Part shown: one piece after another, positions 1,012 through 32,462 of the stretch | How positions within the stretch are numbered: the first letter of the stretch is position 1 | Layout: every line of letters begins with the position of its first letter | UHGV virus genome: UHGV-0221239 | DNA length: 32,462 nt | Reading direction: 5' to 3' (one strand) | Origin: a virus | Translations under genes and position numbers: made by a program | Notes under the pieces: generated by a model | The model's database searches: none | The model's input: the letters and a program-made list of their open reading frames with translations, nothing else | Told to the model about the DNA's origin: nothing

Positions 1012-1032
1012 CTTATATGGGTTATAACAATT

Positions 1033-4530: not shown

Positions 4531-4590
4531 TCGTCACGCTCCATAAACGACAAAACCGCCCGCAGGCGATTTCACATAAAATGTTTTGCA

Positions 4591-5903: not shown

Positions 5904-5908
5904 GGGAT

Positions 5909-10325: not shown

Positions 10326-10340
10326 CGCTGACTCTCCGGA

Positions 10341-11081: not shown

Positions 11082-11088
11082 AGCGTCC

Positions 11089-11484
11089 TCACATTTCATA
11101 GGTAATGACATAAGTCAGATCGGCTGAACTCCACAGGCCCGCATCATCGTCGCGCCGGTAGTCATAGCCACTGGCCACCATACTGGTGATCAAATCTGAC
11201 AGTGCCGGGATATCGCTCATCACCGGATAAATCCGGGACTCCATCCACGCATCCAGCTCTGAATCCGGCACCTGAGCAGGCAGGAAAACTTCAATATGCA
11301 GCTCCGCCTGCCAGGTATCGCTGTCCAGCTCTTCGCCCGTGTATTCAGCGCCGGTGAGATAAACGGCAATTGCCGGAAAATCTTCCTCATCAAAAACAGC
11401 GGGGCGACCATCAAAAAGCGTCGCCCCGGTGTCATGCTTCTCCAGTGCATCCAGTACGGCTGCACGGAGTTCAGTATGTTTCAT
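11089..11484 (-). CDS. U: Tail terminator protein U, 131 aa
   Basis: [53 protein letters not shown]...; lambda gene order. Confidence 0.9.
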
Positions 11485-12059
11485 CGCTTTATTACCATCC
11501 TCAGTTGATGCTGCAGCGCATAGCCCAGCTCTTTCGGAAGACGCTCACGCCGTATCCGCTCAATATTCTGTTTAAACGCCGTGGTCAGCGGCACCGCCAT
11601 CGGGATTTTCACCACATCAATGGGGTAACGGTTTTTCCCGGCCACACGCTGCATGACATGCCAGCGGCCATTTTTCAGTTGCTGAATAAACGCGCCGGGA
11701 ATACGACGGTTTCCCACCACAAGCACGCTGCCGCCACCTTTCAGGGCTGAACGCTGCCCCTTTTTACGACGCCTGCGTCGGGACAGGACAATCCGCGCGT
11801 TACCCAGCTTTATTACGGGCAAATCCCCCCGGTTAACCTTGATTCTGGCCTGCGGATTTTTGACCGTGGCCCTTTTCAGCCTGGCCCTTTCCTTTACCAG
11901 TTTCCGGCGTACCTTTGTCTCACGGGCAACCTGTGACGCCGACTGCGATATCGCGGATGAAGCAACGCGGTTAATAGCCATTGCGGCGGCACCGGGCACC
12001 GCCGCTCTGCTGATACGACTGAGGTTTTCAACGGCCTGCTCAAGACCTTTTATGGCCAT
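11481..12059 (-). CDS. Z: Tail completion protein Z, 192 aa
   Basis: ORF MAIKGLEQAVENLSRISRAAVPGAAAMAINRVASSAISQSASQVARETKV...; overlaps the U start. Confidence 0.9.
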   Translation of the reverse strand: MAIKGLEQAVENLSRISRAAVPGAAAMAINRVASSAISQSASQVARETKVRRKLVKERARLKRATVKNPQARIKVNRGDLPVIKLGNARIVLSRRRRRKKGQRSALKGGGSVLVVGNRRIPGAFIQQLKNGRWHVMQRVAGKNRYPIDVVKIPMAVPLTTAFKQNIERIRRERLPKELGYALQHQLRMVIKR

Positions 12060-12070
12060 ACATCCCCCTT

Positions 12071-12424
12071 TCAGCGGCGACGGTTAACGGCAGGCGGTAC
12101 GCCCCGCCCAAGCCAGAGATGACAGCTTCCGCCATCATCCGGCGAAATCCGGTCTATCCAGAAGTTTTCCTCACCGATGGTCAGCGTGTCGCCGCGCCGC
12201 AGCTGCCGCACATCATCAGTCCGGACAAACAGGGACGGGCTGGAGCCTTCAACGCGCACGCCCTGTCCGGCATAGCTGATATTTTCAGGGTCATCAAAAA
12301 CACCACGTATCACAGCACCGGACTGCTCACCGGATGTCATGGTGGCTGACGTTCCCATGTACCCGCGTATCGTTTCATCGGCGCGGGCAATGGCAGCATC
12401 GAACAGGTTATCGAAATCAGCCAC
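12071..12424 (-). CDS. FII: Head-tail joining protein FII, 117 aa
   Basis: ORF MADFDNLFDAAIARADETIRGYMGTSA...; the track start is a GTG codon. Confidence 0.85.
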   Translation of the reverse strand: MADFDNLFDAAIARADETIRGYMGTSATMTSGEQSGAVIRGVFDDPENISYAGQGVRVEGSSPSLFVRTDDVRQLRRGDTLTIGEENFWIDRISPDDGGSCHLWLGRGVPPAVNRRR

Positions 12425-12435
12425 AGCGCCTCCCG

Positions 12436-12831
12436 TTATTGCATTCTGGCCAGGCCGCGCTCTGTCATTTCAGCTGACACACCGGCAGAGACACGGAACG
12501 CCGTTCCCGGCAGCACAAATGCCACAGCCTCATCCCGCGTGGCGTGAAGTGCATCAGTATGCAGCGTCACCAGTGCCACAACCGTGACCAGATCAGCCGT
12601 ATCAGTCACGGTATCCGGCTGCGCTGATACAACCTCATTTTCATGTCCGGTCAGCGCATTTTCCGGGCTGACAGATGTGTCCTGACCGGCAGCGTCATCC
12701 GTGTCATCAAGCTCCTCTTCCAGCTCTGCCACACGGAGCACCAGTTCTTCTTTCGTCCCCGTCAGGCTGACATCACGGTTCAGTTGCTCACCCAGCACCT
12801 GAAGACGGGCAATCAGTTCATCTTTCGTCAT
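12436..12831 (-). CDS. FI: DNA packaging protein FI, 132 aa
   Basis: Start refined to the in-frame ATG giving MTKDELIARLQVLGEQLNRDVSLTGTKEEL..., preceded by GAGGAG; the track ORF begins 13 codons upstream. Confidence 0.85.
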   Translation of the reverse strand: MTKDELIARLQVLGEQLNRDVSLTGTKEELVLRVAELEEELDDTDDAAGQDTSVSPENALTGHENEVVSAQPDTVTDTADLVTVVALVTLHTDALHATRDEAVAFVLPGTAFRVSAGVSAEMTERGLARMQ

Positions 12832-12872
12832 AGACTCCTCCACAGAGAGAAAATGGCCCCGAAGGGCCATGA

Positions 12873-13898
12873 TTACGCCAGTTGTACGGACACGAACGCA
12901 TCAGGGTCAGCCAGCAGCATCAGCGGTGCTGACTGAATCATGGTGAACTCACGCGCCGGATCGCCGGTGGTCACCCAGTTTTTCGGGTAGCGGGCAGAGG
13001 CGTTAATACCTTCGCGCTGTGCGTCCGCATCCTGAATGCAGCCATAGGTGCGCAGACCGCGTGCCTGAGTGTTCCCCAGCACCATCGAGTTGTCCGGAAG
13101 GAAGTTCTTTTTGACGTCGTTTTCCACGTACTGTCCGGAATACACGACGATCGCCGTATCGCCATACATCCCCTTATAGGACACCGCTTCGCCCAGGTCT
13201 TTTACCGCTGTCTCCAGCTCGGAATTAGAGCCGCGACGGGTATCCAGCTTCTCCTTGACGGCTTTGAAGGAACGGAACAGCGCCCAGCCTTTCGGATCAA
13301 ACACGATGATATTCACCACTCCGCTGGCGTTCAGCGCATAGGCTTCGATATCGTCGGTCGGGTCATACGTGGACTTGTCACGCTTGCTCCACTCCGTACC
13401 ACCGGACTGTGTGATGTTGTTCGCCGCACTGCGGCCCATATCCACCTCAACCGGATCGAAGGCTTCACCGGTCATGGTGTATTTGCCCTTAAGCACAGCA
13501 GAAACTGCCTGCATCTCTTCGACCTGAGCAATGGCCAGCTCTTCGTCTCGCATGTTCTGCATGATGATGCGACGGCGGCGGTAAGCCGGGTCCGCCAGAT
13601 TCTGCGGATCTTCATCCGGCAGGCGACGCAGGGTCATCTGCGGATTCACCTCATGCTTCGGCTTGACATATCCCGGTGTAAATTCAGAGGTGGAGCCGCC
13701 ACGGGAGCGGATAACCTCACCGGAAACAATCGGCGAAACGTACAGCGCCATGTTTACCAGTCCCGGAATTTGTGAGAGATAGACTTTCTCCGTGATGAAG
13801 GGATAGCTCTCACGGAAAAAGAGACGCAGAAACAGCGGATCAAACTTAAATTTCTTCTCATTTGCCGCCAGCAGCTGGGCGGTTGTGTACATCGACAT
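12873..13898 (-). CDS. E: Major capsid protein E, 341 aa
   Basis: Start refined to MSMYTTAQLLAANEKKFKFDPLFLRLFFRESYPF...; characteristic lambda gpE sequence. Confidence 0.95.
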   Translation of the reverse strand: MSMYTTAQLLAANEKKFKFDPLFLRLFFRESYPFITEKVYLSQIPGLVNMALYVSPIVSGEVIRSRGGSTSEFTPGYVKPKHEVNPQMTLRRLPDEDPQNLADPAYRRRRIIMQNMRDEELAIAQVEEMQAVSAVLKGKYTMTGEAFDPVEVDMGRSAANNITQSGGTEWSKRDKSTYDPTDDIEAYALNASGVVNIIVFDPKGWALFRSFKAVKEKLDTRRGSNSELETAVKDLGEAVSYKGMYGDTAIVVYSGQYVENDVKKNFLPDNSMVLGNTQARGLRTYGCIQDADAQREGINASARYPKNWVTTGDPAREFTMIQSAPLMLLADPDAFVSVQLA

Positions 13899-13953
13899 AA
13901 AAAAATCCCGTAAAAAAAGCCGCACAGGCGGCCTTTAGTGATGAAGGGTAAGG

Positions 13954-14286
13954 TTAAACGATGCTGATTGCCGTTCCGGCAAACGCGGTCCGTTTTTTCG
14001 TCTCGTCGCTGGCAGCCTCCGGCCAGAGCACATCCTCATAACGGAACGTGCCGGACTTGTAGAACGTCAGCGTGGTGCTGGTCTGGTCAGCATCAACCGC
14101 CAGAATGCCAACGGCAGTACCGTCGGTGGTGCCATCCCACGCAACCAGCTTACGGGTGGAGGTGTCCAGCATCAGCGGGGTCATTGCAGGCGCTTTCGCA
14201 CTCAATCCGCCGGGCGCGGTTGCCGTATGTGCCGGGTCACTGTTGCCCAGCGGCTGGTAATGGGTAAAGGTTTCTTTGCTCGTCAT
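13954..14286 (-). CDS. D: Head decoration protein D, 110 aa
   Basis: Start refined to [43 protein letters not shown]... Confidence 0.9.
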
Positions 14287-14295
14287 AAACATCCC

Positions 14296-15595
14296 TTACA
14301 CTGGTGTGTTCAGCAAATCGTTAACGGCATCAGATGCCGGGTTACCTGCAGCCAGCGGTGCCGGTGCCCCCTGCATCAGACGATCCAGCGCAGTGTCACT
14401 GCGCGCCTGTGCACTCTGTGGTGCAGCTGCCAGAATGCGGCGGGCCGTTTCCACGGTCATACCGGGGGTTTCTGCCAGCACGCGGGCCTGTACTTCGCGT
14501 CCGTGAGCCTCCTCACAGTTGAGGATCCCCATAATGCGGCTGTTTTCTGCCGCAACCGCAGCGGTGATCTGCGCGTTCACGTCCGGCTGCGCCGCGCTGG
14601 CGTTTTCGCCCTCCGTCGCTGGCACCACGTCAGTAACGTCAGTCTGCGAAGCAGTGGCTGAAACAGTTGTTGATTGAGTCTCTTTGGTCATTCGCCCTCC
14701 TGAGAGACGGGATTTACGCGCATCCAGTGCATCACGCATGACGGTGATCGCATCGGTGCTGTTAACAAGTTCATCAGCCAGTCCGGCATCAATGGCCTCC
14801 TGACCGCTGTACACTGCAGCCTCGGTATCCAGCACAGCCTGCACAGACAGGCCGGTATATGCCGACACCTTCTGCGCAAACATCTGGCGGGTTGCGTCCA
14901 TCCGGGACTGCAGTGTCTCCCGGACGTCATCCGGAAGATGGCTGTAGGGATTGCCATCCACCTTATGGCTGCCGCTGTAAATCAGCGTGATTTCCACACC
15001 CTGTTTCTCCAGGGCAGCACCGTAATTACTGTGAGCCATCATGACGCCGATGGAGCCTGTCCGGGCGGTCTGCGTGACCAGACGCCGGGAGGCGGCACTG
15101 GCAAGCAGCTGACCTGCACTGCAGTTCATGTCGTTGGCCAGCGCCCATACCGGTTTTATGTCTCGCACACGGGCGATGATGTCAGCGCAGTCAAATGCCC
15201 CCGCCACCATTCCGCCTGGCGTGTCCATATCGAGCAGAATGCCGTCCACCATCGGGTCGCTGGCAGCCTGTTGCAGACGGGCGATAATGCCGTTGTAACC
15301 GGTCATCCCCGAGTACGGCTGCAGCGCCCGCGTCCGGCTGACCAGCGTGCCGGACACCGGCAGCACGGCGATGCCGTTCATGACCTGATAACTGCGGGCC
15401 TGTCGTGGTCCGTCATCATCACCGGATAATGCCAGCGTCGCGAGTGCCTCCTGGGCAGTCAGGCTGTCGCCGGACACCGCATCCGTCAGGCGGCTGATCC
15501 CAAGCTGGCCTGCAAGCGCACAAAAGAAAACCCGCGCATAGGCGGGTTCAAGCATCAGCGGCTCATTAAAGGCCATGCTGGCAATATGCGGGAGA

Positions 15596-15615
<20 letters not shown>
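14296..15615 (-). CDS. C: Head maturation protease / scaffold C, 439 aa, GTG start; the Nu3 scaffold is expected in-frame within its 3' part
   Basis: ORF region reading (V)TAELRNLPHIASMAFNEPLMLEPAYARVFF...; GTG start preceded by a GGAGGAG Shine-Dalgarno; S49-type protease motifs. The track ORF extends 49 codons further upstream into B. Confidence 0.85.
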
Positions 15616-19296
<3,681 letters not shown>

Positions 19297-19322
<26 letters not shown>

Positions 19323-19842
19323 TCAGCAACCCCGGTATCAGTTCATCCAGCGCGGCTGCTTTGTTCATGGCTTTGATGATATCCCGTTTCAGGAAATCAA
19401 CATGTCGGTTTTCCAGTTCCGGAAAACGCCGCTGCACCGACAGGGGGATCCCGTCGAGAATACTGGCAATTTCACCTGCGATCCGCGACAACACGAAAGT
19501 ACAGAATGCGGTTTCCACCACTTCAGCGGAGTCTCTGGCATTCTTCAGTTCCTGTGCGTCGGCCTGCGCACGCGTAAGTCGATGGCGTTCGTACTCAATA
19601 GTCCCTGGCTGGAGATCTGCCTCGCTGGCCTGCCGCAGTTCTTCAACCTCCCGGCGCAGCTTTTCGTTCTCAATTTCAGCATCCCTTTCGGCATACCATT
19701 TTATGACGGCGGCAGAGTCATAAAGCACCTCATTACCCTTGCCACCGCCTCGCAGAACGGGCATTCCCTGTTCCTGCCAGTTCTGAATGGTACGGATACT
19801 CGCACCGAAAATGTCAGCCAGCTGCTTTTTGTTGACTTCCAT
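19297..19842 (-). CDS. nu1: Terminase small subunit Nu1, 181 aa
   Basis: ORF MEVNKKQLADIFGASIRTIQNWQEQGMPVLRGGGKGNEVLYDSAAVIKWY... with an N-terminal helix-turn-helix; immediately downstream of cos. Confidence 0.95.
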
Positions 19843-21610: not shown

Positions 21611-22099
21611 TTAATAGCTATCAGAAGTAATCGCTACAGATTTCAATCCCTCAATGTCATCCTTGGACAGGGCGAACCATTCACCGTGCTTTCTCTTTGC
21701 GGCAAATTTGCGATGAAGCATGTTTTCAGTTTCTCTTCCACCAGGGATCAGGCACTCAAGCTTCAAGCAGTCTGGTCCAGAGTTGCCAAGCGATTTGATG
21801 CGTTGTGGAATGTTGGATGAATACCCAATTTTGGTTAGCCCAGTTTTCTTCGATGACAAAACGTATACCTGAGGAGGTTCTTTTCTCTGGTCTTCCATTA
21901 CACGTCTCATTGTTGCCATAAGTCCGCCGTGCATCAGCATTTCAACAAAGAACGCTGACCGAACACCTGACGACTTAAGCATGCCAGAAAATTCACTTGC
22001 CAATTCCATTAACTCTGCGATGTTTTCAGGAACTTTTTGGCAGTTATCTTCCTTGTATAAGGAAATCATTCTTTGAAGCTTTTCTTCTAATTGGTTCAT
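21611..22099 (-). CDS. T5orf172 / GIY-YIG-like domain protein, 162 aa from the ATG (174 aa from the upstream GTG in the track)
   Basis: C-terminal half PQVYVLSSKKTGLTKIGYSSNIPQRIKSLGNSGPD...ENMLHRKFAAKRKHGEWFALSKDDIEGL fits the T5orf172 (MUG113) motif pattern (YVL..., KIG-T, R, E..LH..F, GEWF); N-terminal roughly 85 aa are of unknown function. Confidence 0.7.
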   Translation of the reverse strand: MNQLEEKLQRMISLYKEDNCQKVPENIAELMELASEFSGMLKSSGVRSAFFVEMLMHGGLMATMRRVMEDQRKEPPQVYVLSSKKTGLTKIGYSSNIPQRIKSLGNSGPDCLKLECLIPGGRETENMLHRKFAAKRKHGEWFALSKDDIEGLKSVAITSDSY

Positions 22100-22304: not shown

Positions 22305-22763
22305 TTATTTCAGGCATTGCGTCCTGATGTATTCCTGCAGGTAGTTAACCTGCGCGGTTATCTTGTCGATTCCACTTCGGAGACGGTAATAATTGAGTTC
22401 AGCATCTGCTGTAAGTCCTGGGCTTTCTCCATCGCCCATGCCGCTGGTTCCGGTCGTTGACTTTGCACAGGTGGCGGCGACTTGCAGGCGCTTACGCCCA
22501 GCAGAAACATCAGCACGGAGACTTTCGATAGTCGCGTTAGCATCAGCAAGCTCCTTTGTGTATCTTGCGTCGAGTTCTGCTACATCACGTTGACGCTTCC
22601 GCATGTCAGCGATGGTGGCGTTCGCCTTCTCCAGTTCACTGGCCTTGTTATCGCGCTGCTCTTTGTAGGCGATTGCGTTATCACGGTAATGATTAACAGC
22701 CAATGACAGGCAGACGATGATGCAGATAACCAGAGCGGAGATAATCGCGGTTACTCTGCTCAT
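22305..22763 (-). CDS. Rz: Spanin inner-membrane subunit Rz (i-spanin), 153 aa
   Basis: Start refined to [39 protein letters not shown]...: N-terminal TM helix plus coiled-coil; contains the embedded Rz1 frame. Confidence 0.85.
22358..22543 (-). CDS. Rz1: Spanin outer-membrane lipoprotein Rz1 (o-spanin), embedded in the +1 frame of Rz
   Basis: [39 protein letters not shown]...: lipobox (VSAC) followed by a proline-rich segment, entirely inside Rz. Confidence 0.7.
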
Positions 22764-23257
22764 TGTTTCCCCCACAAACAGACTTCACGCTCAATCTCAC
22801 GGCGAGTCATCAGTCCTTTCCATTGATTACCGCCAGCGTATGTCCAGCGCCGTAGCTGATCACATGCGCCTTTAATATCACCCTGGTTTATTTTGCGAAG
22901 AAGCGTCGATGTTCTGAAATTGCCAGCACCCACGTTGTAGACGAACGAGTAAAGAGCGCCGCGCGTTGTTTCCGGTATATCGACTTTGATGTACCGGTTA
23001 ATTTGTCTGGCGACAGTGGCAAGGTCTTTATTCAGGAGGGCTTTGCACTCTGCTTCGGTATACGTTTTACCGGGAATGATGTCTTTTCCTGTATGCCCGT
23101 AACATACAGTCCATACACCAACTATGTCTTTGTAAGGATTATGTCTCACACCTTCCAGACCATCGTTACCACTTGGGCCAGTGATTAACACAGATGCTAT
23201 AGCAATAGCCCCGCCACCAATAGCAGCAGCAACAGCTTTTCGTAATGATGGAGGCAT
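22760..23257 (-). CDS. R: SAR endolysin (phage 21 R-type lysozyme, GH24), 165 aa
   Basis: [40 protein letters not shown]...: Gly/Ala-rich signal-anchor-release domain followed by a T4-lysozyme-like domain. Confidence 0.9.
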
Positions 23258-23472
23258 TATTCACCTCTCGCAGCCTTGCGCTTATCTTCTTTAATCTTGA
23301 AATAAAGGTTTGTCAGGTACGTCAGCAGGCCAAATACCAGGCTACCCAGCACACCTATTGCTGCCCACTGTGAGGGCGTGACTTTATCGAGCAGCTGTAA
23401 AAACCAGTACCCGGCACTACCTGCTGAGGTGCCATAGGCGACACCCGTTGTTAACTTATCCATGGATTTCAT
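23257..23472 (-). CDS. S: Pinholin (phage 21 S-type holin), 71 aa, dual-start motif MKSMDK
   Basis: [74 protein letters not shown]: two TM segments, charged C-terminus, Met1 and Met4 starts. Confidence 0.9.
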
Positions 23473-23617: not shown

Positions 23618-24045
23618 AAGCTGTGTGACGAAGTAACCACTCTTAACAGCATAACCAATTTTTTACGTACGTAAACCACTAAATGATATTTGCGAGAATG
23701 CTACCGAGTATTGAAAACACCACTACAAATACATAAGCAAATCTCAACAAATAACCAACAAATAATTTCCAGCGTTATTTTTAGCCAATTTAAATTGAAC
23801 CTTCAAATTATAGAGCACTTATAAATAACAGCCGTTAATATAAATTGGCTAATAGATTTATTTTTATTCAGCCAAGAGCTATGAATAGGATTCGATAGAA
23901 AAAAGTTCAGATAAAAATAGAGATCTACTTCACAAATCAAACGAGAAACCAAAACTTACATCTTGAAATAATCACATTGATTAGATGAATATTTATCGCG
24001 CAGTGACATCATTTTTTAATAATAGTTCAAAAAAAAGGGCTCACG

Positions 24046-25143
24046 ATGAAAAAATTAACAGTGGCAATTTCTGCTGTAGCTGCATCAGTACTGATGGCGA
24101 TGTCTGCTCAGGCAGCTGAAATTTATAATAAAGACAGTAACAAGCTGGATCTGTACGGGAAAGTTAATGCTAAGCACTACTTCTCCTCTAATGATGCAGA
24201 TGATGGTGATACTACTTATGCCCGTCTTGGCTTCAAAGGTGAAACCCAAATCAACGATCAACTGACTGGTTTCGGTCAGTGGGAATATGAATTCAAAGGC
24301 AACCGCGCTGAATCTCAAGGTTCCTCCAAAGACAAAACCCGTCTTGCATTTGCAGGCCTGAAATTCGGTGACTACGGCTCAATCGATTACGGCCGTAACT
24401 ACGGTGTAGCATACGACATCGGTGCGTGGACTGACGTTCTGCCAGAATTCGGTGGCGATACCTGGACCCAAACAGATGTGTTCATGACTGGTCGCACCAC
24501 TGGTGTTGCAACCTATCGTAACAACGACTTCTTTGGTCTGGTTGATGGTCTGAACTTTGCTGCTCAGTACCAAGGCAAAAACGATCGTAGCGATTTCGAT
24601 AACTACACTGAAGGTAACGGTGATGGCTTCGGTTTCTCTGCTACCTATGAATACGAAGGATTCGGTATCGGTGCAACTTATGCGAAATCTGATCGTACCG
24701 ACACTCAAGTTAATGCAGGGAAAGTTCTTCCTGAAGTATTTGCTTCCGGTAAAAATGCAGAAGTTTGGGCCGCAGGTCTGAAATATGACGCTAACAACAT
24801 TTACCTGGCCACTACCTATTCTGAAACCCAGAATATGACTGTATTTGCTGATCACTTCGTTGCTAATAAAGCCCAAAACTTCGAAGCTGTTGCACAATAT
24901 CAGTTCGATTTCGGTCTGCGTCCGTCCGTTGCTTACCTGCAATCTAAAGGTAAGGATCTTGGAGTATGGGGCGATCAGGACTTAGTCAAATATGTTGATG
25001 TAGGTGCAACCTATTACTTCAACAAAAATATGTCTACTTTCGTTGATTACAAAATCAACCTGCTTGACAAAAATGACTTCACTAAAGCACTCGGTGTAAG
25101 CACTGATGACATCGTTGCTGTAGGTCTGGTTTACCAGTTCTAA
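24046..25143 (+). CDS. nmpC: Outer-membrane general porin of the OmpC/OmpF/NmpC/Lc family, 365 aa, intact
   Basis: [49 protein letters not shown]...GLVYQF with signal peptide and C-terminal beta-barrel signature ending in F; opposite strand to the flanking Q and lysis genes, as for nmpC in DLP12 and Lc in phage PA-2. Confidence 0.9.
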
Positions 25144-25305
25144 TCTGATTACGAAAAAGATATGTTGCGGGAGGCGTTGCCTCCCCAACATATAAGTGGC
25201 TCCCTCAAGCCACTTCCTTTAGAAGCACAACCTTGCTTCTAACTATATAAACCTTCTGTTATATATTACCCTTTATTTTTGGGGGCGTCTCAACGCCCCA
25301 TTTTT
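25144..25305 (+). ncRNA. ipeX: Structured 3' UTR of the porin gene, candidate IpeX-like sRNA
   Basis: Roughly 160 nt between the porin stop and its terminator contain three consecutive stem-loops (atatgttgcgggagg.../aagtggct...agccactt/agaagca...tgcttct). IpeX is described as lying between the nmpC stop and its terminator; identity not verified by alignment. Confidence 0.4.
25281..25305 (+). terminator. Rho-independent terminator of the porin transcript
   Basis: ggggcg-tctcaa-cgcccc hairpin followed by ATTTTT. Confidence 0.7.
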
Positions 25306-25332
25306 AATAATTTTTAGTAAACAATTGGCATA

Positions 25333-25707
25333 TTAATTAGAGTTATTAACAACGATATCCATCTCTAACCGGATATCTAATGCCATTAACATCCCTTCAA
25401 TTATGCCCTCAGCCTTCTGTAACCTTTTCCCGATATAACCATCAGAGCAGCAATGCTTACCTGCCAGTGACATGAATGTCATACCGACTACATAATAATC
25501 TACTAATAAATCGTGCAAATCGCTGTTGTTCTTTTTCAGACGGGCCATGCACCCGCAAATGATCATCGCGTCATCGTCACAACATTGCGGGCGAGATTTT
25601 ACTTTTGAAGGAATTAATCCCTTAAACCAGACCGCTGATTTTGAAGATAATGACTTCAGCGGCAAACGCTCCCTGATGGAGTCTGTCGAAGCGAAGATCA
25701 AAGACAT
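25333..25707 (-). CDS. Q-like late antiterminator (QuuD-like), 124 aa from the first ATG; its first 28 codons lie inside an inverted-repeat copy
   Basis: C-terminal ...[83 protein letters not shown] with Cys clusters; position between the early genes and the porin/lysis block as for quuD. No Shine-Dalgarno precedes the ATG in this orientation. Confidence 0.5.
25624..25697. repeat. Inverted repeat, copy 1 (74 bp perfect; 87 bp with 2 mismatches), partner at 26075-26148
   Basis: The plus-strand sequence aaaccagaccgctgattttgaagataatgacttcagcggcaaacgctccctgatggagtctgtcgaagcgaaga is the exact reverse complement of 26075-26148. Confidence 0.9.
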
Positions 25708-25933
25708 TATGCCAGTGACATTTGAATTTAAATGCGTTCCGTTTGAAGGTCTGAAAGAACGTCCGTTTAAATTACGCCTCAGCATTATCACTGGCGATCG
25801 TCCTGTACTTGTTCTGCGCATTATTCAGCTGGAGGCGGTGCAGGAAGAAATGGCTAACGAATTTCGCGATCTGCTTGTTGAGAAATTCAAAGACAGCAAA
25901 GTAGAAACCTTTATTGGTACTTTCACCGCCTGA
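25624..25933 (+). pseudogene. Displaced 3' portion of the yfdQ-like gene (repeat-encoded residues plus 74 C-terminal codons), inverted relative to its 5' part
   Basis: Plus-strand frame reads [28 protein letters not shown] then [74 protein letters not shown]; the same [24 protein letters not shown] segment ends the minus-strand gene at 26016-26663. Confidence 0.6.
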
Positions 25934-25945
25934 TTTGATTACTGC

Positions 25946-25966
25946 AAATGCCCCTGCGGGGGCATT
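25946..25966 (+). terminator. Terminator-like hairpin after the displaced yfdQ-like 3' end
   Basis: aaatgcccc-tgc-ggggcattt perfect 9-bp stem 13 nt after the stop codon; followed by a GGAG-6nt-ATGATG start context at 26052-26067. Confidence 0.4.
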
Positions 25967-26015
25967 TATGGAAACGTAATTAACTCAATAATCTCCGGAT
26001 GGTGAGGGCTTCCTT

Positions 26016-26663
26016 TTACCAGAATTCAGTGCGGTGCAGCGCAAATAACGTGGAGAACAAAATGATGTCTTTGGTCTTCGCTTCGACAGACTCCATCAGG
26101 GAGCGTTTGCCGCTGAAGTCATTATCTTCAAAATCAGCGGTCTGGTTTGCTTCAATCGTGATTTTACGGACAGCCGCAGCCGCTTTTGTTGCCTGGATAG
26201 CGTCACCATTAGCATCAAAACCCACAAGGTAGTCGGCCCAGTCTTCAATCCATTCTGCCAGTGACTTCTGGGAGTTACGCTCGCTGTTAACAGACAACAG
26301 TGCAGAGAACGGTGCTGTCTTTTTCAGTTTGAGAGTGGCGGTGTTATCTGCGTGACCTGGTTCATCAATAGTACCCAGGTTAAGCACACTGACGGCACGC
26401 ATATTATCAGCATCGATAAAGCAGCGGGTGCCTTCATCTGCAAGATCTTTAGAATAACGGGTAAAGTCATCGATGCTGGCAGTGGAAAGCGCACCACGGA
26501 AACGGAAGCGATTTAAATTAAATTTTTCCAGATCATGAATGCGGAAATTCTCAGGCAATGCTACAGCATCGGCACCAATCTTACTGATAATTTCATTAAC
26601 ACCCTGAGCAGAAATAATAGCATGGATTTGATTAATTGCGGTTGCGTCTAAGTTCTGAGACAT
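26016..26663 (-). pseudogene. yfdQ-like (DUF2303-like) phage gene, 5' part; reading frame leaves the family-like sequence after the inverted repeat and stops 15 codons later
   Basis: [51 protein letters not shown]... with GAGGA Shine-Dalgarno; after ...SVEAKTKDI it reads [15 protein letters not shown], while the plausible continuation is on the other strand at 25698-25933. Confidence 0.6.
26075..26148. repeat. Inverted repeat, copy 2 (partner of 25624-25697)
   Basis: Exact reverse complement of 25624-25697; coordinates cross-checked against the codon positions of both ORFs. Confidence 0.9.
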
Positions 26664-26728
26664 AATAAGTCCTCACTATATAAAGATATTCAGTGATGAG
26701 ATAAATAATCAGTTAATTAAGAACGATA

Positions 26729-27091
26729 TTAATGACCTGCTGCGCGGAGTTTTCCGTCAGGTTCACCGGCAAGAGTCAGTAATTGTCCCTGGTCTTCCTG
26801 CAGAATAGTCAGGCGACCACCGCGATTGACATACATCGGCGTTTCGGTGGTGTCTTCTTCAGAAATTTTCCCGCGGTTAGTCGGGCGAACATATGAGAGT
26901 TTGTGTTTGATTTTCACTCGGTTCTCATCAAATGGTTCGATTTCCAGGTTGAGTGAGACCTTACCTTTGGTTTTCGTGTTCATCACACCGGAAGCGACTT
27001 CACTGAGAACTGCGCCGATTTTGGTTTCAAATACGCCGCCGTCCAGCTCCCCGATAAATGCCTGCACATCAGTACTGCGTTCGCTAGCCAT
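26729..27091 (-). CDS. Hypothetical phage protein, 120 aa (YfdP-like)
   Basis: Start refined to MASERSTDVQAFIGELDGGVFETKIGAVLSEVASGVMNTK... with GAGGAG 8 nt upstream; the track ORF extends 106 codons further upstream into non-coding-looking sequence. Confidence 0.7.
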   Translation of the reverse strand: MASERSTDVQAFIGELDGGVFETKIGAVLSEVASGVMNTKTKGKVSLNLEIEPFDENRVKIKHKLSYVRPTNRGKISEEDTTETPMYVNRGGRLTILQEDQGQLLTLAGEPDGKLRAAGH

Positions 27092-27139
27092 TTTGCTGCT
27101 CCTCATCATATCGACCCTGCAAGGCCGATTAGTTTCTCC

Positions 27140-27272
27140 ACAAAACAGAGAAGAACACCTGCGGTGGCAGCCGCCCGGATGGATTGAGTTATGAGCCCGT
27201 CGTCCGGTGATGCTCTTCTCTGTTTTGTAAAAAGGACGGTACCAGCCGGAAGCAAGGGTACAAGCTGGTACC
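27140..27272. other. Structured GC-rich non-coding region: 15-bp inverted repeat (27140-27154 / 27214-27228, 59-nt spacer) plus a 9-bp-stem hairpin (27238-27272)
   Basis: caaaacagagaaga ... tcttctctgttttg, and ggtaccagc-N17-gctggtacc; the hairpin loop carries gggtacaag, resembling the operator half-site GGTACAAG found at 29110-29117. Confidence 0.5.
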
Positions 27273-27492
27273 GCCAAGACTACACACAGCATAAAGTTGT
27301 GGTGCCGGGTGCCTCCCGGTGCCTGGCGAAGGTTGCACACCAGGCGGGTGGGTATCCACAGAAGGTCGACTGTCAGCCTCAACCTTAACCCGCGTGCGCT
27401 GAGCAGCATTCACCACAACGCTAAGGATTCTCTCTGGTTGAAAATACTTAGCTGTTATGTGCCTGCTTTTAGCCACATCAGGCGAGGTGGAC

Positions 27493-27544
27493 CTGGTTAT
27501 TCCCCAACAACAAGGATTCGGTTAATCTGGTTATCCCCAACAAC
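27493..27544 (+). promoter_or_regulatory. Two direct repeats (CTGGTTAT(T)CCCCAACAAC) 34 bp apart, 15-65 bp upstream of the 144-aa gene
   Basis: 27493-27512 ctggttattccccaacaaca and 27527-27544 ctggttatccccaacaac; followed by AAGGA and ATG at 27560. Confidence 0.5.
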
Positions 27545-27559
27545 GCAAAAGGAAAAGAA

Positions 27560-27994
27560 ATGTCCGGTAATATCTACACGTTGTACAAATCCCACTGTGA
27601 AAATGTTGGAAAGTATCGGGGCATTGAAATCAGTGGGGTAGTGTCATCAGTCGAAATAAGCAAAGTGGAATCAAGGGCAACATTACTTACTCTTCTGGAT
27701 CTTGTCTTACATGAGCACCGGAAGAAATTCGGCACTCCCTATAATCAGTTGAATGGGAAAAAGGCTCTGGTTCACCTTATTCTGATGAAGCATCACTGGA
27801 TGCCAAAACAGATTAATGAGATGAAATTTGATGAACTTCTTCTTTCAATTCAGGATGAACTCACACTTGATAAAATAAGCGTAACCGCCCAGAAATTTTT
27901 AGATTATCGAGACTGGAGATCACAAATTCATCACTTTGATGATTTTGACGAAAATGAATGGGATCCTAATTTGTCTGCACAATATCTAAAGTAA
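27560..27994 (+). CDS. Hypothetical protein, 144 aa, no family recognised
   Basis: ORF MSGNIYTLYKSHCENVGKYRGIEISGVVSSVEISKVESRATLLTLLDLVL... with AAGGA Shine-Dalgarno at -6; AT-rich codon usage; 3' end overlaps the convergent 68-aa gene by about 29 bp. Confidence 0.65.
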   Translation: MSGNIYTLYKSHCENVGKYRGIEISGVVSSVEISKVESRATLLTLLDLVLHEHRKKFGTPYNQLNGKKALVHLILMKHHWMPKQINEMKFDELLLSIQDELTLDKISVTAQKFLDYRDWRSQIHHFDDFDENEWDPNLSAQYLK

Positions 27995-28172
27995 CATCCT
28001 GTGATAAAACCGTGATTTCCTGATCCAGTTTTTTTAAGGAGTCTATTGTTTCCTGTCGATAAGACAGCACTTCACGAAGCTGGTTTATAGCTGCCAGCTT
28101 CTTTGCCATCCACTCGTAAATTTCCTCATTTGTGTATCCGGGCGCGACGATTTTGGGTTCTGTTTTGTGCAT
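27966..28172 (-). CDS. Small hypothetical coiled-coil protein, 68 aa, downstream of the repressor gene
   Basis: Refined start MHKTEPKIVAPGYTNEEIYEWMAKKLAAINQLREVLSYRQETIDSLKKLDQEI... with GGAGG 8 nt upstream (the track ORF begins at a TTG 5 codons earlier). Confidence 0.6.
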   Translation of the reverse strand: MHKTEPKIVAPGYTNEEIYEWMAKKLAAINQLREVLSYRQETIDSLKKLDQEITVLSQDVTLDIVQTN

Positions 28173-28406
28173 TTCACACCTCCTCAAGTTATCAGTTACT
28201 TGTTGATGGGGACCAGATTGTTAAAGAGCTAAGCGTCCTGTAGGGCGCTTTTTTGTTGCTAACGAATCATCCTGGACTTCATATGCCCCAGGCGGCTACT
28301 TCGTGGGCGTCCTGCCTGTTTGTTGTTTCTCTTAGGTACATTATGTATCTCAAGGGTACATTGTCAAGTATAAAAAAACCTGCCGAAGCAGGTTCATAAA
28401 CATTGA

Positions 28407-29081
28407 TTAGGCTTTGATTTTGTATCTTCTTGGTTTTCCTGAGAAAATCACAGTTCCAATTATAGAGCAATTACCGTTGATCTTAATGTAAGGCTCAGGC
28501 CAGTTTGGGTTTAACGCTTTGAGATAACGCTGTGTCCCATCTTCTATCAACCTTTTGAAGGTGGTTTCACCTGTATCGTGCATCAATGCAATAACGTCGT
28601 CACCGTGGCAGGCAGGTACTTCAGGATCGACAAAAATCATGTCTCCCGGGCGGTACTCATCAATCATTGAATCACCTATCACCCGCAAGATATAAGTCAT
28701 TTCCCCACAGGGTACAGGGCAGGGATACGTTTCTGCTGTGCTCAAATCAACCTCAGAATATCCAACTTCTTTCCATGCTCCGGCCTGTACCCATGATATG
28801 ACAGGGACTAATGTGATTTGTTTATTAGTGATTGAAAAATCAGGTTTTTTTGTGATGTTCGTTGTCTGGTGTTCTTGATCGAGCCATCCGACAGGCAGGT
28901 CGAAACATTTTTCGATGTGTCGTGCCATGTTGTCACCGATATTTTTAGTAGCACCATCTCCCATAAACCTGCTGGTCTGGGTTGGCTCGCGATCAATCAT
29001 AGTGGCAAAGGAAGAATTCCCGCCAACACCATCTCTCAGTTTTCTGGCGTTAGACCGCCGGATGTCATGGATTGTTTTCAT
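28407..29081 (-). CDS. cI: CI-like prophage repressor with C-terminal S24 (LexA-like) peptidase domain, 224 aa
   Basis: ORF MKTIHDIRRSNARKLRDGVGG... with N-terminal HTH and C-terminal ...VISWVQAGAW...LRVIGDSMIDEYRPGDMIFVDPE...GDDVIAL...TTFKRL... autocleavage-domain pattern; divergent from a Cro-like gene across palindromic operators. Confidence 0.85.
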   Translation of the reverse strand: MKTIHDIRRSNARKLRDGVGGNSSFATMIDREPTQTSRFMGDGATKNIGDNMARHIEKCFDLPVGWLDQEHQTTNITKKPDFSITNKQITLVPVISWVQAGAWKEVGYSEVDLSTAETYPCPVPCGEMTYILRVIGDSMIDEYRPGDMIFVDPEVPACHGDDVIALMHDTGETTFKRLIEDGTQRYLKALNPNWPEPYIKINGNCSIIGTVIFSGKPRRYKIKA

Positions 29082-29096
29082 AACGAAATTAAAACC

Positions 29097-29117
29097 CTTG
29101 TACCGTTAAGGTACAAG
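29097..29117. promoter_or_regulatory. Operator palindrome on the repressor-promoter side (CTTGTACC-GTTAA-GGTACAAG)
   Basis: Perfect 8-bp half-sites with TGTAC-N7-GTACA spacing, 16 bp upstream of the cI start codon. Confidence 0.6.
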
Positions 29118-29145
29118 TATCTTGAAGGTTCATTTCAATCATGTA

Positions 29146-29168
29146 ATATGTACACCGGAGGTACATAT
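29146..29168. promoter_or_regulatory. Operator palindrome on the cro-promoter side (ATATGTAC-ACCGGAG-GTACATAT), overlapping a candidate -10
   Basis: Same TGTAC-N7-GTACA geometry; candidate promoter TTGAAG (29122-29127), 16-nt spacer, TAATAT (29144-29149) reading toward cro. Confidence 0.6.
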
Positions 29169-29171
29169 TGT

Positions 29172-29372
29172 ATGAAAGCGTATTGGGACTCTTTAACCAA
29201 AGAACAGCAGGGCGAGTTGGCCGGAAAAGTTGGCTCAACACCTGGCTACTTACGGCTGGTTTTCAATGGCTATAAAAAAGCCAGTTTTGTGCTGGCTAAA
29301 AAACTTGAGCAATGCACGTCAGGTGCAATTACGAAATCTGACTTAAGACCGGATATCTATCCGAAAGATTAG
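29172..29372 (+). CDS. cro: Cro-like small DNA-binding protein, 66 aa
   Basis: Refined [69 protein letters not shown], divergent from cI, GGAGG upstream. The track ORF 28869-29372 begins far upstream inside the operator region. Confidence 0.7.
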
Positions 29373-29508
29373 CAGAACACTTTCAATTTTTAACCACAGA
29401 ACGATGAGGCTAATCGTGGGTATCTGGGGCGACACCGTTGTTGAGTGTGTGCTTAACAAACTCTGCCCGTCGCATACCTACGTAATTTTTAAATATCCGG
29501 AGTAATCC

Positions 29509-30021
29509 ATGCATCGTATAGACACGAAAACCGCGCAGAAGGATAAGTTCGGCGCGGGTAAGAACGGTTTTACCCGTGGTAACCCCCAGACCGGCACACC
29601 TGCCACCGATCTGGATGATGACTACTTTGACATGTTGCAGGAGGAGCTTTGCAGCGTGGTGGAGGCATCCGGTGCCAGCCTGGAGAAGGGGCGGCACGAC
29701 CAGTTGCTTACCGCGCTTCGTGCGCTGCTGTTAAGCCGCAAGAATCCGTTTGGCGATATCAAATCGGATGGCACGGTGAAAACGGCTCTCGAAAACCTTG
29801 GTTTGGGAGAAGGTTCTGCATTACCTGTTGGGGTGCCTGTTCCGTGGCCTTCAGCCACTCCGCCAACAGGCTGGCTGAAATGCAACGGTGCGCCTTTTTC
29901 TGCCGAAGAGTATCCGGAACTGGCAAAAGTTTACCTGACAAATAAATTGCCTGATTTACGCGGTGAGTTAATTATAAACGGTTATGTCTCCAGCTTTTAT
30001 GGCAATGAGTTCGTTATTTAA
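29509..30021 (+). pseudogene. Tail-fibre gene, constant N-terminal part (about 153 codons), terminated 17 codons after the constant/variable junction in this orientation
   Basis: [77 protein letters not shown]...[44 protein letters not shown] then [17 protein letters not shown]; the PWPS...LPDLRGE block resembles the Stf constant/variable junction; GGAG at -7. Confidence 0.7.
29938..29969. repeat. Inverted repeat alpha, copy 1 (32 bp, encodes [10 protein letters not shown] at the tail-fibre junction); partner at 30325-30356
   Basis: acaaataaattgcctgatttacgcggtgagtt is the exact reverse complement of 30325-30356. Confidence 0.9.
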
Positions 30022-30041
30022 GACAACTTTATTCATCAGGC
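29969..30041. repeat. Inverted repeat beta, copy 1 (73 bp; its reverse complement encodes the tfa start [22 protein letters not shown] and the stop of the variable fibre segment); partner at 30357-30429
   Basis: taattataaacggttatgtctccagcttttatggcaatgagttcgttatttaagacaactttattcatcaggc is the exact reverse complement of 30357-30429. Confidence 0.9.
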
Positions 30042-30326
30042 AGCCCTCACGATATAATTAAAGGCAATGTTACGAGGTCGGTTTTCGTTTGCAGTTGGAA
30101 CAACTCTGGAAGCATCGAATGTTACTCGCTTTGCATAACCACCTTTAATTGAATCCGATGAAGCATCTCCGATGACGCTGGTTGTAAAAACGCCAGAATC
30201 AGAAGGATAGGTATTGAACCTGACATCCACTAATGCACCAATTATATTTCGAATGGCATCGCCCTGTGATGAAAGCAAGCTACGGCTAGTATCTATTCCT
30301 CTTCCGTCATCCCAGCCACGAATAAA
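30036..30326 (-). pseudogene. Variable C-terminal tail-fibre segment (about 96 codons), on the opposite strand from its constant part
   Basis: Minus-strand reading continues in frame from alpha copy 2: (LPDLRGE)FIRGWDDGRGIDTSRSLLSSQGDAIRNIIGALVDV...NRPRNIAFNYIVRAA*, a typical tail-fibre C-terminus (lambda Stf ends ...NIAFNYIVRLA as I recall); no ATG of its own (TTG inside alpha in the track). Confidence 0.65.
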
Positions 30327-30356
30327 CTCACCGCGTAAATCAGGCAATTTATTTGT
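30325..30356. repeat. Inverted repeat alpha, copy 2
   Basis: Reverse complement of 29938-29969; a one-base difference immediately outside (29970 / 30324). Confidence 0.9.
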
Positions 30357-30429
30357 GCCTGATGAATAAAGTTGTCTTAAATAACGAACTCATTGCCATA
30401 AAAGCTGGAGACATAACCGTTTATAATTA
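30357..30429. repeat. Inverted repeat beta, copy 2 (contains the tfa start codon at 30362)
   Basis: Reverse complement of 29969-30041. Confidence 0.9.
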
Positions 30430-30970
30430 TAATGGTGAAACGCGGGAATATATTTCCACATCAACAGAATATCTTGCCATTGGTGTAGGCATTCCGGCAT
30501 GTTCCTGTTTAGATGCTCCAGACTCATACAAAACTGGTTATGCAATTTGCCGTTCTGAAGATTTTAACTCATGGGTATATGTGCCAGACCATCGTGGTGA
30601 AATTGTCTATAGCACTGAAACAGGAGAATCAAAAGAAATCACAGCTCCGGGTGATTACCCTGATAATACAACCACTATCGCCCCGTTAACGCCATACGAT
30701 AAATGGGATGGTGAGAAATGGGTGACGGATACCGTGGCACAGCATAGCGCCGCAGTAGATGCAGCAGAAGCACAGCGCCAGTCGCTGATTGATACTGCAA
30801 TGGCCTCCATCAGTCTGATTCAACTGAAATTACAGGCCGGACGGAATCTGACGCAGTCAGAAACCAGCCGACTTAACACGGTGCTGGATTACATTGACGC
30901 GGTAACGGCAACAGATACCAGCACCGCGCCGGATGTCATCTGGCCTGAACTGCCGGAGACTGCGCAATAA
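30362..30970 (+). CDS. tfa: Tail fibre assembly protein (Tfa/U family), 202 aa
   Basis: [33 protein letters not shown]... with C-terminus ...LNTVLDYIDAVTATDTSTAPDVIWPELPETAQ, resembling the conserved Tfa C-terminus (lambda Tfa ...RVDTSTAPDIEWP); the start overlaps the stop of the variable fibre segment (TGATG) when that segment is read from the beta repeat. Confidence 0.8.
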   Translation: MNKVVLNNELIAIKAGDITVYNYNGETREYISTSTEYLAIGVGIPACSCLDAPDSYKTGYAICRSEDFNSWVYVPDHRGEIVYSTETGESKEITAPGDYPDNTTTIAPLTPYDKWDGEKWVTDTVAQHSAAVDAAEAQRQSLIDTAMASISLIQLKLQAGRNLTQSETSRLNTVLDYIDAVTATDTSTAPDVIWPELPETAQ

Positions 30971-31139
30971 ACTCACCATCAATATATAAATCCCCCTGCT
31001 GTGTGTCAGCAGGGCATTCTTTCCATATTAATGATGGATGGAATCTTCCTTCAGGATTAATTTCCGTTATCTCTTCTACTTTATTTTCTTCAATTCTTGC
31101 CCACATATGAACCTCACCAGTAAATATAAACTGCGCCAT
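30936..31139 (-). CDS. Possible second, truncated tail-fibre assembly gene (67 aa), convergent with and overlapping tfa
   Basis: Internal start MAQFIFTGEVHMWARIEENKVEEITEINPEGRFHPSLIWKECPAD... sits 26 nt before the stop of the glycine-rich gene, the usual stf-tfa coupling; weak similarity only. Confidence 0.35.
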   Translation of the reverse strand: MAQFIFTGEVHMWARIEENKVEEITEINPEGRFHPSLIWKECPADTQQGDLYIDGEFIAQSPAVQAR

Positions 31140-31788
31140 CTGCTCCGGCACCCGACTGACCCGTTGATGAATTAGGACATAATCCAGCACCGCCACCTCC
31201 AGGCCCAACTGCTGATACCGCTTTTCCGTTAGCTGTATCTCTGAATGAACCTGCTCCTCCGGGGCCACCACCAGAACCACCATTACCAGCTCCCGATGCG
31301 GCAGACGCAATGGAACCTGGAGAACCTGGCCCAAGCGATGTATTAATTGTTCCCCCAACACCAACTGCGCCTAACCCTCCGGAAGGCTGGCCTCCGCTAT
31401 AGCCTCCGGAAGCTGACATGTAAGTCCCGAAACTGCTCGAGCCACCATTTTTACCGTTTACAGAAATACCAGACACAGGCGCACCACCGGCACCAACCGT
31501 AATCGAAACACTGTTAATACCAGTTAAATCTACCAGTCCCTCAGCAACTCCGCCCCCACCACCTCCTCCGCCACATGTAACGGCTGAAGCGGTTATTGAA
31601 CCTATCCCTCCTGACGCACCGCCACCAATAACTTTGACGTAACATTTTCTTCCTTTGCGCAACTCTTCAGGAACAGTCCAGCTTGTTACTCCAGCCGTTG
31701 TGAAGGCAACCAGATTTCTGAACCCAAATGAGCCTTCTCCCAAACCAACGTTTATGAAAATGCAGAAATAACGAGCAAATGGCATCAT
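31114..31788 (-). CDS. Glycine-rich putative tail-fibre / receptor-binding protein, 224 aa
   Basis: ORF MMPFARYFCIFINVGLGEGSFGFRNLVAFTTAGVTSWTVPEELRKGRKCYVKVIGGGASGG... with long Gly/Ser/Ala-rich tracts; divergent from the invertase start 27 bp away, as stfE is to pinE in e14. Confidence 0.55.
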   Translation of the reverse strand: MMPFARYFCIFINVGLGEGSFGFRNLVAFTTAGVTSWTVPEELRKGRKCYVKVIGGGASGGIGSITASAVTCGGGGGGGGVAEGLVDLTGINSVSITVGAGGAPVSGISVNGKNGGSSSFGTYMSASGGYSGGQPSGGLGAVGVGGTINTSLGPGSPGSIASAASGAGNGGSGGGPGGAGSFRDTANGKAVSAVGPGGGGAGLCPNSSTGQSGAGADGAVYIYW

Positions 31789-31815
31789 TCCTGCTTTTAC
31801 TTGGGGGGATTTAAC

Positions 31816-31923
31816 ATGCTTATTAGCTATGTACGCGTATCAATAAATGACCAGAACACAGATCTACAACGTAATGCGTTGAACTGTGCAGGATGCGAGC
31901 TGATTTTTGAAGACAAAATCTAA
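31816..31923 (+). pseudogene. pin: DNA invertase (Gin/Pin/Hin serine recombinase family), first 35 codons only
   Basis: [35 protein letters not shown] matches the invertase N-terminus (Gin: [34 protein letters not shown]..., from memory), including the catalytic Ser region; a stop follows directly after the inverted repeat. Confidence 0.75.
31835..31916. repeat. Inverted repeat gamma, copy 1 (82 bp perfect; invertase codons 7-34); partner at 32245-32326
   Basis: gcgtatcaataaatgaccagaacacagatctacaacgtaatgcgttgaactgtgcaggatgcgagctgatttttgaagacaa is the exact reverse complement of 32245-32326. Confidence 0.9.
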
Positions 31924-32142
31924 CTTTGCTTAACCTTAGCGTAAACCGTTCCGTTCAGAATGCTGTATTTCTGAAAAAACGTGATGCTCTCATCGTCCAC
32001 ACCAATCTACGACTGAACATACCACTTATACTTAAGGATAAATGGGATGAGAGTGAAATACTGGAGCGAGGTAAAAAGTTGGGGGAAATTGCATTGAAAG
32101 TATGGCCAAAATACGATTAATGCAATTAATAAAATGATTATA

Positions 32143-32166
32143 GCGGCCTTACATTAGTAAGGCCGC
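32143..32166. other. Perfect 9-bp-stem palindrome (gcggcctta-cattag-taaggccgc)
   Basis: Seen directly; overlaps the stop codon of the minus-strand ORF 32154-32426; no adjacent T-run on either strand. Confidence 0.5.
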
Positions 32167-32426
32167 AACTCACTATTAAATCCTTTAATTTGCATCAAGA
32201 ACAGCACTGTCAGCCCTAGGCTCTCGGACTTTGTACCGCTTATCTTGTCTTCAAAAATCAGCTCGCATCCTGCACAGTTCAACGCATTACGTTGTAGATC
32301 TGTGTTCTGGTCATTTATTGATACGCTCGCTTGTTGCCGTTTCCTTACCAGTAGCTGTTCAGGGGTAAGATCGGTTCCAGACAGAACAATTTGGTTCATT
32401 ACCGTAGCATCTGAATTTGTCACCAT
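32154..32426 (-). pseudogene. Chimeric ORF: unrelated N-terminus + repeat-encoded invertase residues 8-34 + ISGTKSE..., then loss of invertase similarity
   Basis: MVTNSDATVMNQIVLSGTDLTPEQLLVRKRQQAS-VSINDQNTDLQRNALNCAGCELIFEDK-ISGTKSESLGLTVLFLMQIKGFNSELRPY*; invertases continue ...RPGLKRAL..., so the gene is degenerate after about residue 45. Confidence 0.5.
32245..32326. repeat. Inverted repeat gamma, copy 2
   Basis: Reverse complement of 31835-31916; boundaries cross-checked against codon positions of ORF 32154-32426. Confidence 0.9.
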
Positions 32427-32462
32427 ATGACCATTTTCGAGAGGCCAACAGGAATACCAACT

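Follow-up and report, generated by a model that had tools for sequence, protein, structure and literature searches.

The divergent repressor-Cro pair at 28407-29372 of the window (the whole 32,462-nt stretch that was analyzed, virus genome UHGV-0221239) is, judging from sequence comparison, very probably the CohE/CroE (YmfK/YmfT) switch of an e14/SfIV-family prophage remnant, lying in its native orientation within its own element. The original prediction had drawn attention to a departure from the gene order of lambda, with cI on the strand of the late genes, cro on the opposite strand, and neither O/P replication genes nor cII or a nin region between cI and Q. These observations were confirmed by the ORFs and profile matches: the repressor lies on the minus strand together with Q (ORF called as 25333-25716), the lysis genes and the genes from J to Nu1, while croE lies on the plus strand, and 24001-32462 is fully tiled by other sequence, every base being covered by alignments to annotated reference genomes. 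The pair looks inverted because the left arm of the e14-type element abuts, at 25626/26064, the 5'-truncated Q of an unrelated minus-strand late region of the lambda/DLP12 type. The anomaly in phage gene order is two known prophage types side by side, the biology of which is already known; the violation of lambda gene order vanishes once the pair is recognized as CohE/CroE in its own remnant, and it carries little biological weight.

The two genes of the immunity pair are the following.

28407-29081, - strand, cohE/ymfK, S24 LexA/cI-type repressor of the e14 family, 224 aa (Pfam, PHROG, motifs, e14 comparison)
29172-29372, + strand, croE/ymfT, Cro-like HTH protein, 66 aa (profile matches, e14 comparison)

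The repressor ORF matches Pfam PF00717 (E 2e-26) and a PHROG described as a transcriptional repressor, and it contains QAGAW at residue 99 (the Ala-Gly site), GDSM at residue 136 and FKRL at residue 175 (the Ser/Lys catalytic residues). The ORF listed at 28869-29372 is a program call from an upstream GTG, within which croE proper begins at 29172. Comparison with K-12 e14, which the original prediction had proposed, gave 223 of 224 identical residues for YmfK and 65 of 66 for YmfT, and 98.5% DNA identity over 28258-29422. The repressor region had been ascribed to a different, e14/Mu-like element; the e14 part of this description is borne out, whereas 'Mu-like' is apt only for the tail genes of intact relatives.

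The order of the arms around the module is native, with yfdQ'-yfdP-...-ymfK on one side and ymfT-(deletion)-ymfQ'-fibre-tfa-pin'-GmrSD on the other, collinear with the related sequences L001, L003 and L027. The stretch 26062-29422 is 99.94% identical to an intact icd-site e14-like prophage, in which the order is int-xis-yfdR-yfdQ-yfdP-...-ymfK followed divergently by ymfT-ymfL. Furthermore, croE and the surviving e14-type fibre genes share a strand in the window, as expected for that element. An inversion of the block within a phage, as had been suggested, is contradicted by this arrangement: cI to the left and cro to the right is normal relative to the element's own arms, as in SfIV, and the two flanks are different backbones. 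The interval between Q and the repressor is occupied mainly by the left arm.

26062-28172, - strand, left arm, e14/SfIV-type (alignments, profile matches; 98.9% identical to SfIV across the block)
26016/26062-26663, - strand, yfdQ', truncated DUF2303 gene (alignment, Pfam)
26729-27091, - strand, yfdP (alignment)
27106-27416, - strand, frameshifted ORF (alignment to annotated references)
27560-27994, + strand, ECs1072-family ORF (profile match)
27966-28172, - strand, 68-aa ORF (ORF listing)

The count of four small genes between cI and Q was no more than approximate, the interval being made up of a reversed piece with the yfdQ 3' end and yfdR start, the truncated yfdQ, yfdP, the frameshifted ORF, the plus-strand ECs1072-family ORF and the 68-aa ORF. 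Alignment tiling and profile matches gave no O/P, cII or nin genes between Q and cI, and Rfam and tRNA scans of the window gave no matches. Reference annotations conflict at one point of this arm: what RefSeq lists as yfdP and, upstream, a 'frameshifted hypothetical' is a single 226-aa ORF here (26729-27409), as in SfIV_34.

On the other side of croE the element continues across a deletion into its right end, with the following features.

29416-29505, + strand, deletion junction J3, where ymfL, cut after 7 nt, runs at 29420-29422 into the final 89 nt of ymfQ
29509-31919, + strand, e14-type tail-fibre/invertible P region (alignments, profile matches)
29509-29973, + strand, fibre 5' part (alignment)
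29793-29816 and 31730-31753, no strand, pix-like crossover sites (Pin/Gin-type, inverted; sequence)
30362-30970, + strand, tfa (alignment)
30936-31788, - strand, alternative tfa and fibre ends (alignment)
31816-31919, + strand, pin' fragment (alignment)
32327-32462, - strand, body of a GmrSD/DUF262 gene, which runs off the window (alignment)

About 25 kb of an e14-type phage, comprising replication, Q, lysis, head and contractile tail genes, are missing at J3. J3 recurs in two further assemblies, the ENA metagenome scaffold L027 (14.3 kb) and the Logan contig L029, which probably derive from one sample and were retrieved by looking up the exact YmfK protein of the window, itself rare. Both show an e14-like remnant of ∼13.5 kb between icd' and icd, with which 26065-29969 of the window is identical and collinear across the cro-ymfQ' junction; because the junction recurs in these two assemblies, the ∼25-kb deletion from cro to ymfQ' is real, and it is similar to the decay seen in K-12 e14. 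The genes int and xis and the att sites lie outside the window and are present in the identical remnant on the scaffold. In L027 and L029 alike, yfdQ is intact (274 aa) and leads into yfdR-xis-int, the fibre gene is intact as well (249 aa), and the three reversed pieces described below are absent. A second cI/cro pair further to the right had been named as the finding that would indicate two adjacent elements; within the window there is none, only the e14-type right end. There the pix-like sites bound an invertible segment of ∼1.9 kb, which in strain SW4848 has the opposite orientation to that in the window and in strain 1190. Since the adjoining pin is a short 5' fragment only, this P segment has probably stopped inverting, barring an invertase supplied in trans. 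The GmrSD/DUF262-type gene, which putatively encodes a type IV restriction enzyme (1448-3337 of L027), occupies the position of mcrA in K-12 e14, which suggests that the right end beside attR is a swappable slot for defence genes.

The remaining 25.6 kb of the window are lambdoid, and the late region 1-25626 belongs, as far as its genes and alignments tell, to a separate prophage of the DLP12 type.

364-19842, - strand, lambda-type structural and packaging genes, all intact (ORFs, Pfam families of relatives)
364-963, - strand, lom (Lom PHROG match)
1033-4530, - strand, J (ORF and relatives)
6933-9494, - strand, H (ORF and relatives)
12873-13925, - strand, E (ORF and relatives)
15596-17197, - strand, portal (ORF and relatives)
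17397-19322, - strand, terminase A (ORF and relatives)
19297-19842, - strand, Nu1 (ORF and relatives)
21611-22099, - strand, GIY-YIG/T5orf172 nuclease-like moron between the lysis genes and cos (Pfam PF13455/PF10544; GIY-YIG nuclease in relatives)
22305-23472, - strand, lysis cassette essD, rrrD, Rz (holin 23257-23472, lysozyme 22760-23257, Rz 22305-22763)
24046-25143, + strand, nmpC/ompD-like porin gene, a moron between Q and the lysis genes (Porin_1, relatives)
25333-25626, - strand, quuD (antiterminator Q), 3' 97 codons (Pfam PF06530, comparison with the 127-aa QuuD)

This half is 99.9% identical to and collinear with E. coli PK5074/L73 over 24 kb, with 24001-25626 matching L73 at 100%; its closest relatives reach 99.98-100% identity, and the best match of all is scaffold_298, from the metagenome that also contains L027, with one mismatch in 14,530 nt. 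The exact Rz variant was found in three contigs only; the third of them, in the 50-200 kb size class and presumably scaffold_298, is grouped as similar to a contig with the full early region. PK5074, L73 and all other contexts that were recovered via the porin, J, nuclease and Rz proteins have an intact Q of 127 aa followed by ylcG, rusA, ybcO, ninE, P, O, YdaT or cII, cro (-) and cI (+), i.e. the lambda orientation. In many relatives the slot from Rz to cos holds bor or a KilA-N gene instead of the GIY-YIG/T5orf172 gene, so that it is a variable moron slot. In E. coli L73 (L020, 2811556-2813232) the icd attachment site is empty and iraM lies directly beside icd; among complete genomes, the two halves of the window are therefore best matched in different lineages.

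The 5' truncation of Q, which the original prediction had not mentioned, is located where the match to relatives ends, at 25626, 90 nt short of the start codon of Q (alignments to L004 and L005). QuuD has lost its first 30 codons, in the place of which 65 codons from the antisense strand of yfdQ are read, and PF06530 is matched over profile positions 25-118 of 118, with 1-24 missing. A chance ORF extends to 25821, giving 162 aa of which 65 are the antisense of yfdQ; a homology search with this Q' fusion ORF gave no match covering more than ∼70% of it at the level of identity seen for Q, and no such fusion is known. The lambdoid prophage had been called defective, and as given in the window it is, being without the Q 5' end, nin, O/P, cro/cI and int. 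Its late operon has neither an intact Q nor an early promoter of its own, and both elements are defective: from the content of the window, neither would be expected to replicate, excise or activate late genes normally.

A candidate control region was located between the divergent genes, and further signals were located downstream of cohE.

29097-29166, no strand, divergent control region with two GTAC-N7-GTAC palindromes, 29100-29114 and 29150-29164, candidate operators
28395-28376, - strand, intrinsic terminator of ymfK (consensus scan)
28367-28340, - strand, leftward early promoter-like site TTGACA-16-CATAAT (consensus scan), overlapped by GGTACA half-sites at 28335 and 28355

In a consensus scan, GTAC-N7-GTAC motifs occurred five times in 32 kb, two of them within the 90-bp gap between cohE and croE and 50 bp apart; the palindrome of the control region was also picked up as hairpin-like in a separate scan. 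The palindromes would serve as operators and 28367-28340 as a promoter. By analogy with LexA/cI-type switches, CohE may bind both palindromes between cohE and croE and also the related half-sites that overlap the leftward promoter-like site, a strong one, and RecA-stimulated self-cleavage of CohE would derepress both sides. The cohE gene would be read leftward and stopped by its own terminator, with the promoter-like site pointing into yfdP-yfdQ(-yfdR-xis-int); transcription on this side would cross yfdP and what is left of yfdQ, heading for the Q' fusion ORF. The croE gene would be read rightward into the remains of its own right arm, namely ymfQ', the tail fibre, tfa, pin' and GmrSD. Because ymfL/ymfM and the replication genes are missing, the switch would control almost nothing on the cro side but remnants of fibre genes. 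The e14 element has been reported as linked to an SOS-inducible division block (PMC3614548).

The e14-type 6.9 kb contain three reversed pieces, of which there are none in the lambdoid 25.6 kb.

25624-26064, + strand, reversed piece 1, 441 nt, yfdQ 3' end (25624-25933), intergenic sequence and yfdR start codon
29969-30356, reversed, reversed piece 2, 388 nt, fibre C-terminus and tfa start
31916-32326, reversed, reversed piece 3, 411 nt, pin' 5' end and 3' end of the GmrSD/DUF262 gene

Together with the join of Q to yfdQ, these pieces make six breakpoints that are private to the window and absent from the closest assemblies. Each piece is accompanied by inverted end duplications, of 87 nt for piece 1, 36 and 74 nt for piece 2 and 85 nt for piece 3 (within 25624-26148, 29938-30429 and 31835-32326, respectively); the 87-nt arm of piece 1 duplicates 26062-26148 in inverted form. 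At 29938-30429 the arrangement can be written A b c' M' b' c D, which fits either a short contig that was reversed with its overlaps kept or a double template switch. Exact look-ups of four ORFs that span junctions gave no match, no 30-mer across J1 or J3 occurred in the viral, GTDB-genome or JGI-metagenome collections, and the joins are not covered by any of 5,426 complete E. coli genomes. The duplicated arms were also absent from the lambdoid stf/tfa genes of scaffold_298. Perfect microhomology at seven junctions, checked base by base, amounts to 3, 0, 3, 1, 1, 1 and 0 nt, about what chance would give; BLAST overlaps of 3-6 nt, considered as the sign of a molecular event, shrank to this level and were set aside.

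Substitutions are denser in the reversed pieces (5/1240 versus 2/7094; Fisher p = 0.001). Piece 1 differs from the adjacent allele at four positions, agreeing at two of them with the Logan contig and at the other two with PhiR49_1 and SfIV. As all four substitutions are natural alleles in other assemblies and phages, neither error-prone synthesis nor sequencing error was accepted as their source, and the piece therefore comes from another copy of yfdQ or another strain and not from miscopying. It was also considered as the left arm of a PhiR49_1-like lambdoid phage, a candidate that its orientation fits; however, the icd-type allele is closest (99.1% identity versus 97.5% for PhiR49_1 and 96.8% for SfIV). 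Two other sources of the reversed pieces were discarded. Pin-mediated inversion does not agree with their ends, which are not at pix-like sites, and the end duplications are foreign to site-specific inversion; that the duplicated arms are multi-copy repeats of the kind that break assembly graphs is not supported, the arms being single-copy in most E. coli genomes (median of one place).

How the two elements came to be adjacent can be explained in several ways. The explanation that we favour, and consider moderately probable, is that the join of Q to yfdQ and the three reversed pieces stem from assembly or scaffolding, in which contigs of 388-441 nt were reversed with overlaps of 36-87 nt kept and two unlinked contigs were joined; the real genome would then have the e14-type remnant alone at icd and a complete lambdoid prophage elsewhere. 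The order A b c' M' b' c D is the exact outcome of reversing a contig bMc with kept overlaps, and the sizes of the pieces are in the range of library fragments or short contigs. One metagenome (SRR11412801, BioSample SAMN14445483) has both halves at at least 99.99% identity on separate scaffolds, with int-xis-yfdR-yfdQ intact, and the allele states of piece 1 and of its arm both occur in the two assemblies of that sample; the junction-spanning ORFs are on record nowhere in the exact look-ups and homology search. Against such an origin, the single-copy state of the arms in most E. coli genomes is unlike the usual repeat-induced graph breaks, and graph assemblers rarely join sequences that have only 0-3 nt in common. 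The join could instead be real, for which we see a substantial chance that stays somewhat below even: a single complex rearrangement based on replication (MMBIR-like, with template switches in series), or an inversion or deletion with a complex junction, would have fused the DLP12-type late half to the e14-type remnant and reversed three stretches of ∼400 nt, leaving a doubly defective composite prophage. The strands fit an inversion-type join of an argU-site prophage and an icd-site element as these are oriented in K-12, and each reversed piece can be read as copying forward, a jump of 326-354 nt ahead, copying back and a jump forward, i.e. a double template switch. The breakpoints are confined to 6.9 kb, the other 25.6 kb being free of them, and internal deletions are known in e14-type elements, namely K-12 e14, YZ_2_2 and the confirmed J3. 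However, an inversion of ∼630 kb inside one replichore would be unusual, which counts against a real join, as do the chance-level microhomology at the junctions and the fact that piece 1 carries alleles of another yfdQ copy and is not a copy of the adjacent DNA. The private breakpoints themselves are awkward for it, the window being otherwise 0-1 SNP from closest assemblies that continue normally. It is these six private breakpoints in 6.9 kb of otherwise identical sequence, together with the normal continuations of both halves in the nearest assemblies, that incline us to an assembly artefact.

It is very improbable that the window is a single mosaic lambdoid phage of the PhiR49_1 type, with e14-type immunity and lambda-type late genes, in which the immunity block was inverted in place. 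PhiR49_1 and PhiR29_1 do hold both types of module in one functional genome, but the block shares 99.94-100% identity with icd-site e14-like elements and only 97.6-99.3% with PhiR49_1, where 27545-28212 remains unaligned. Furthermore, the sequence to the right of croE is the fibre/pin/GmrSD end of an e14-type myovirus and not ymfL-O-rusA, an inversion in place would have retained 5.7 kb of replication and nin-type genes of which none are present, and the closest relatives of the late region have another immunity type. The icd-site allele of the block and the e14-type sequence on its right exclude an in-place inversion of this kind. A stronger version of the real join also seems unlikely, if a little less so than the mosaic phage: serial template switching resembling chromoanasynthesis in the E. 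coli chromosome would have fused the two prophages and placed a CohE-repressed, presumably SOS-inducible leftward promoter (28367-28340) upstream of the Q' fusion ORF (25821-25333) and the intact lambda-type lysis and late operon. If this were true, it would form a hybrid circuit, in which the immunity switch of one prophage could drive the late genes of another.

The main interpretation of the original prediction, that the repressor region belongs to a different element, is supported, but no assembly of a relative supports the join of the two elements, which may be absent from the cell. An argument from prophage gene order requires that the two sides be shown to come from a single element. 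With six unshared junctions, the window should not be used for conclusions on prophage defectiveness, regulation or chromosome structure before confirmation by reads; if the junctions are real, they represent a rare bacterial case of a clustered multi-switch rearrangement.

Among known systems, the remnant resembles K-12 e14 at the icd site in its near-identical repressor and Cro, its divergent layout, its right end (ymfQ-stfP-tfa-invertible segment-pin) and a large internal deletion that makes the element cryptic. It differs in its left arm, which is ymfH-I-J in e14 and of the yfdP/yfdQ type in the window, as in SfIV and CPS-53, and in its deletion, which is larger, with ymfL, ymfM and the replication and terminase fragments all lost. 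In addition, pin is a fragment and a GmrSD/DUF262 gene stands in place of mcrA. The Shigella phages SfIV and SfV match the 3,361-nt block yfdQ-yfdP-...-cI-cro at 98.9% and 98.1%, respectively. In their native context, cI faces int, and cro (+) faces the replication, Q, lysis, head and contractile tail genes on the + strand; unlike the window, in which only ∼6.8 kb of an element of this kind remain, they are complete and inducible and carry genes for O-antigen modification. The late half corresponds to DLP12-type prophages at the argU or bio-ybhC sites (L73, PK5074, GCA_041084245.1), with 99.9-100% identity between lom and codon 31 of quuD; the porin moron and essD-rrrD-Rz are part of this match. 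These prophages, however, continue into ylcG, rusA, nin, P, O, YdaT, cro, cI, recombination genes and int, all of which the window is without. Finally, the Escherichia phages PhiR49_1 (PV340568.1, L022) and PhiR29_1 (PV340556.1) combine e14-type cI/Cro (99.3% over 28213-29422) with a QuuD-porin-lambda late region (∼96%) in one functional genome, but in canonical orientation, the stretch ymfL-ymfM-O-...-rusA-ydfU, 5.7 kb long, separating cro from Q, and the block in the window is a different allele from theirs. Because these phages carry an e14-type cI/Cro-YmfL-YmfM early region, the module is not exclusive to e14-like myovirus prophages and circulates in SfV-like myoviruses and lambda-like siphoviruses alike.
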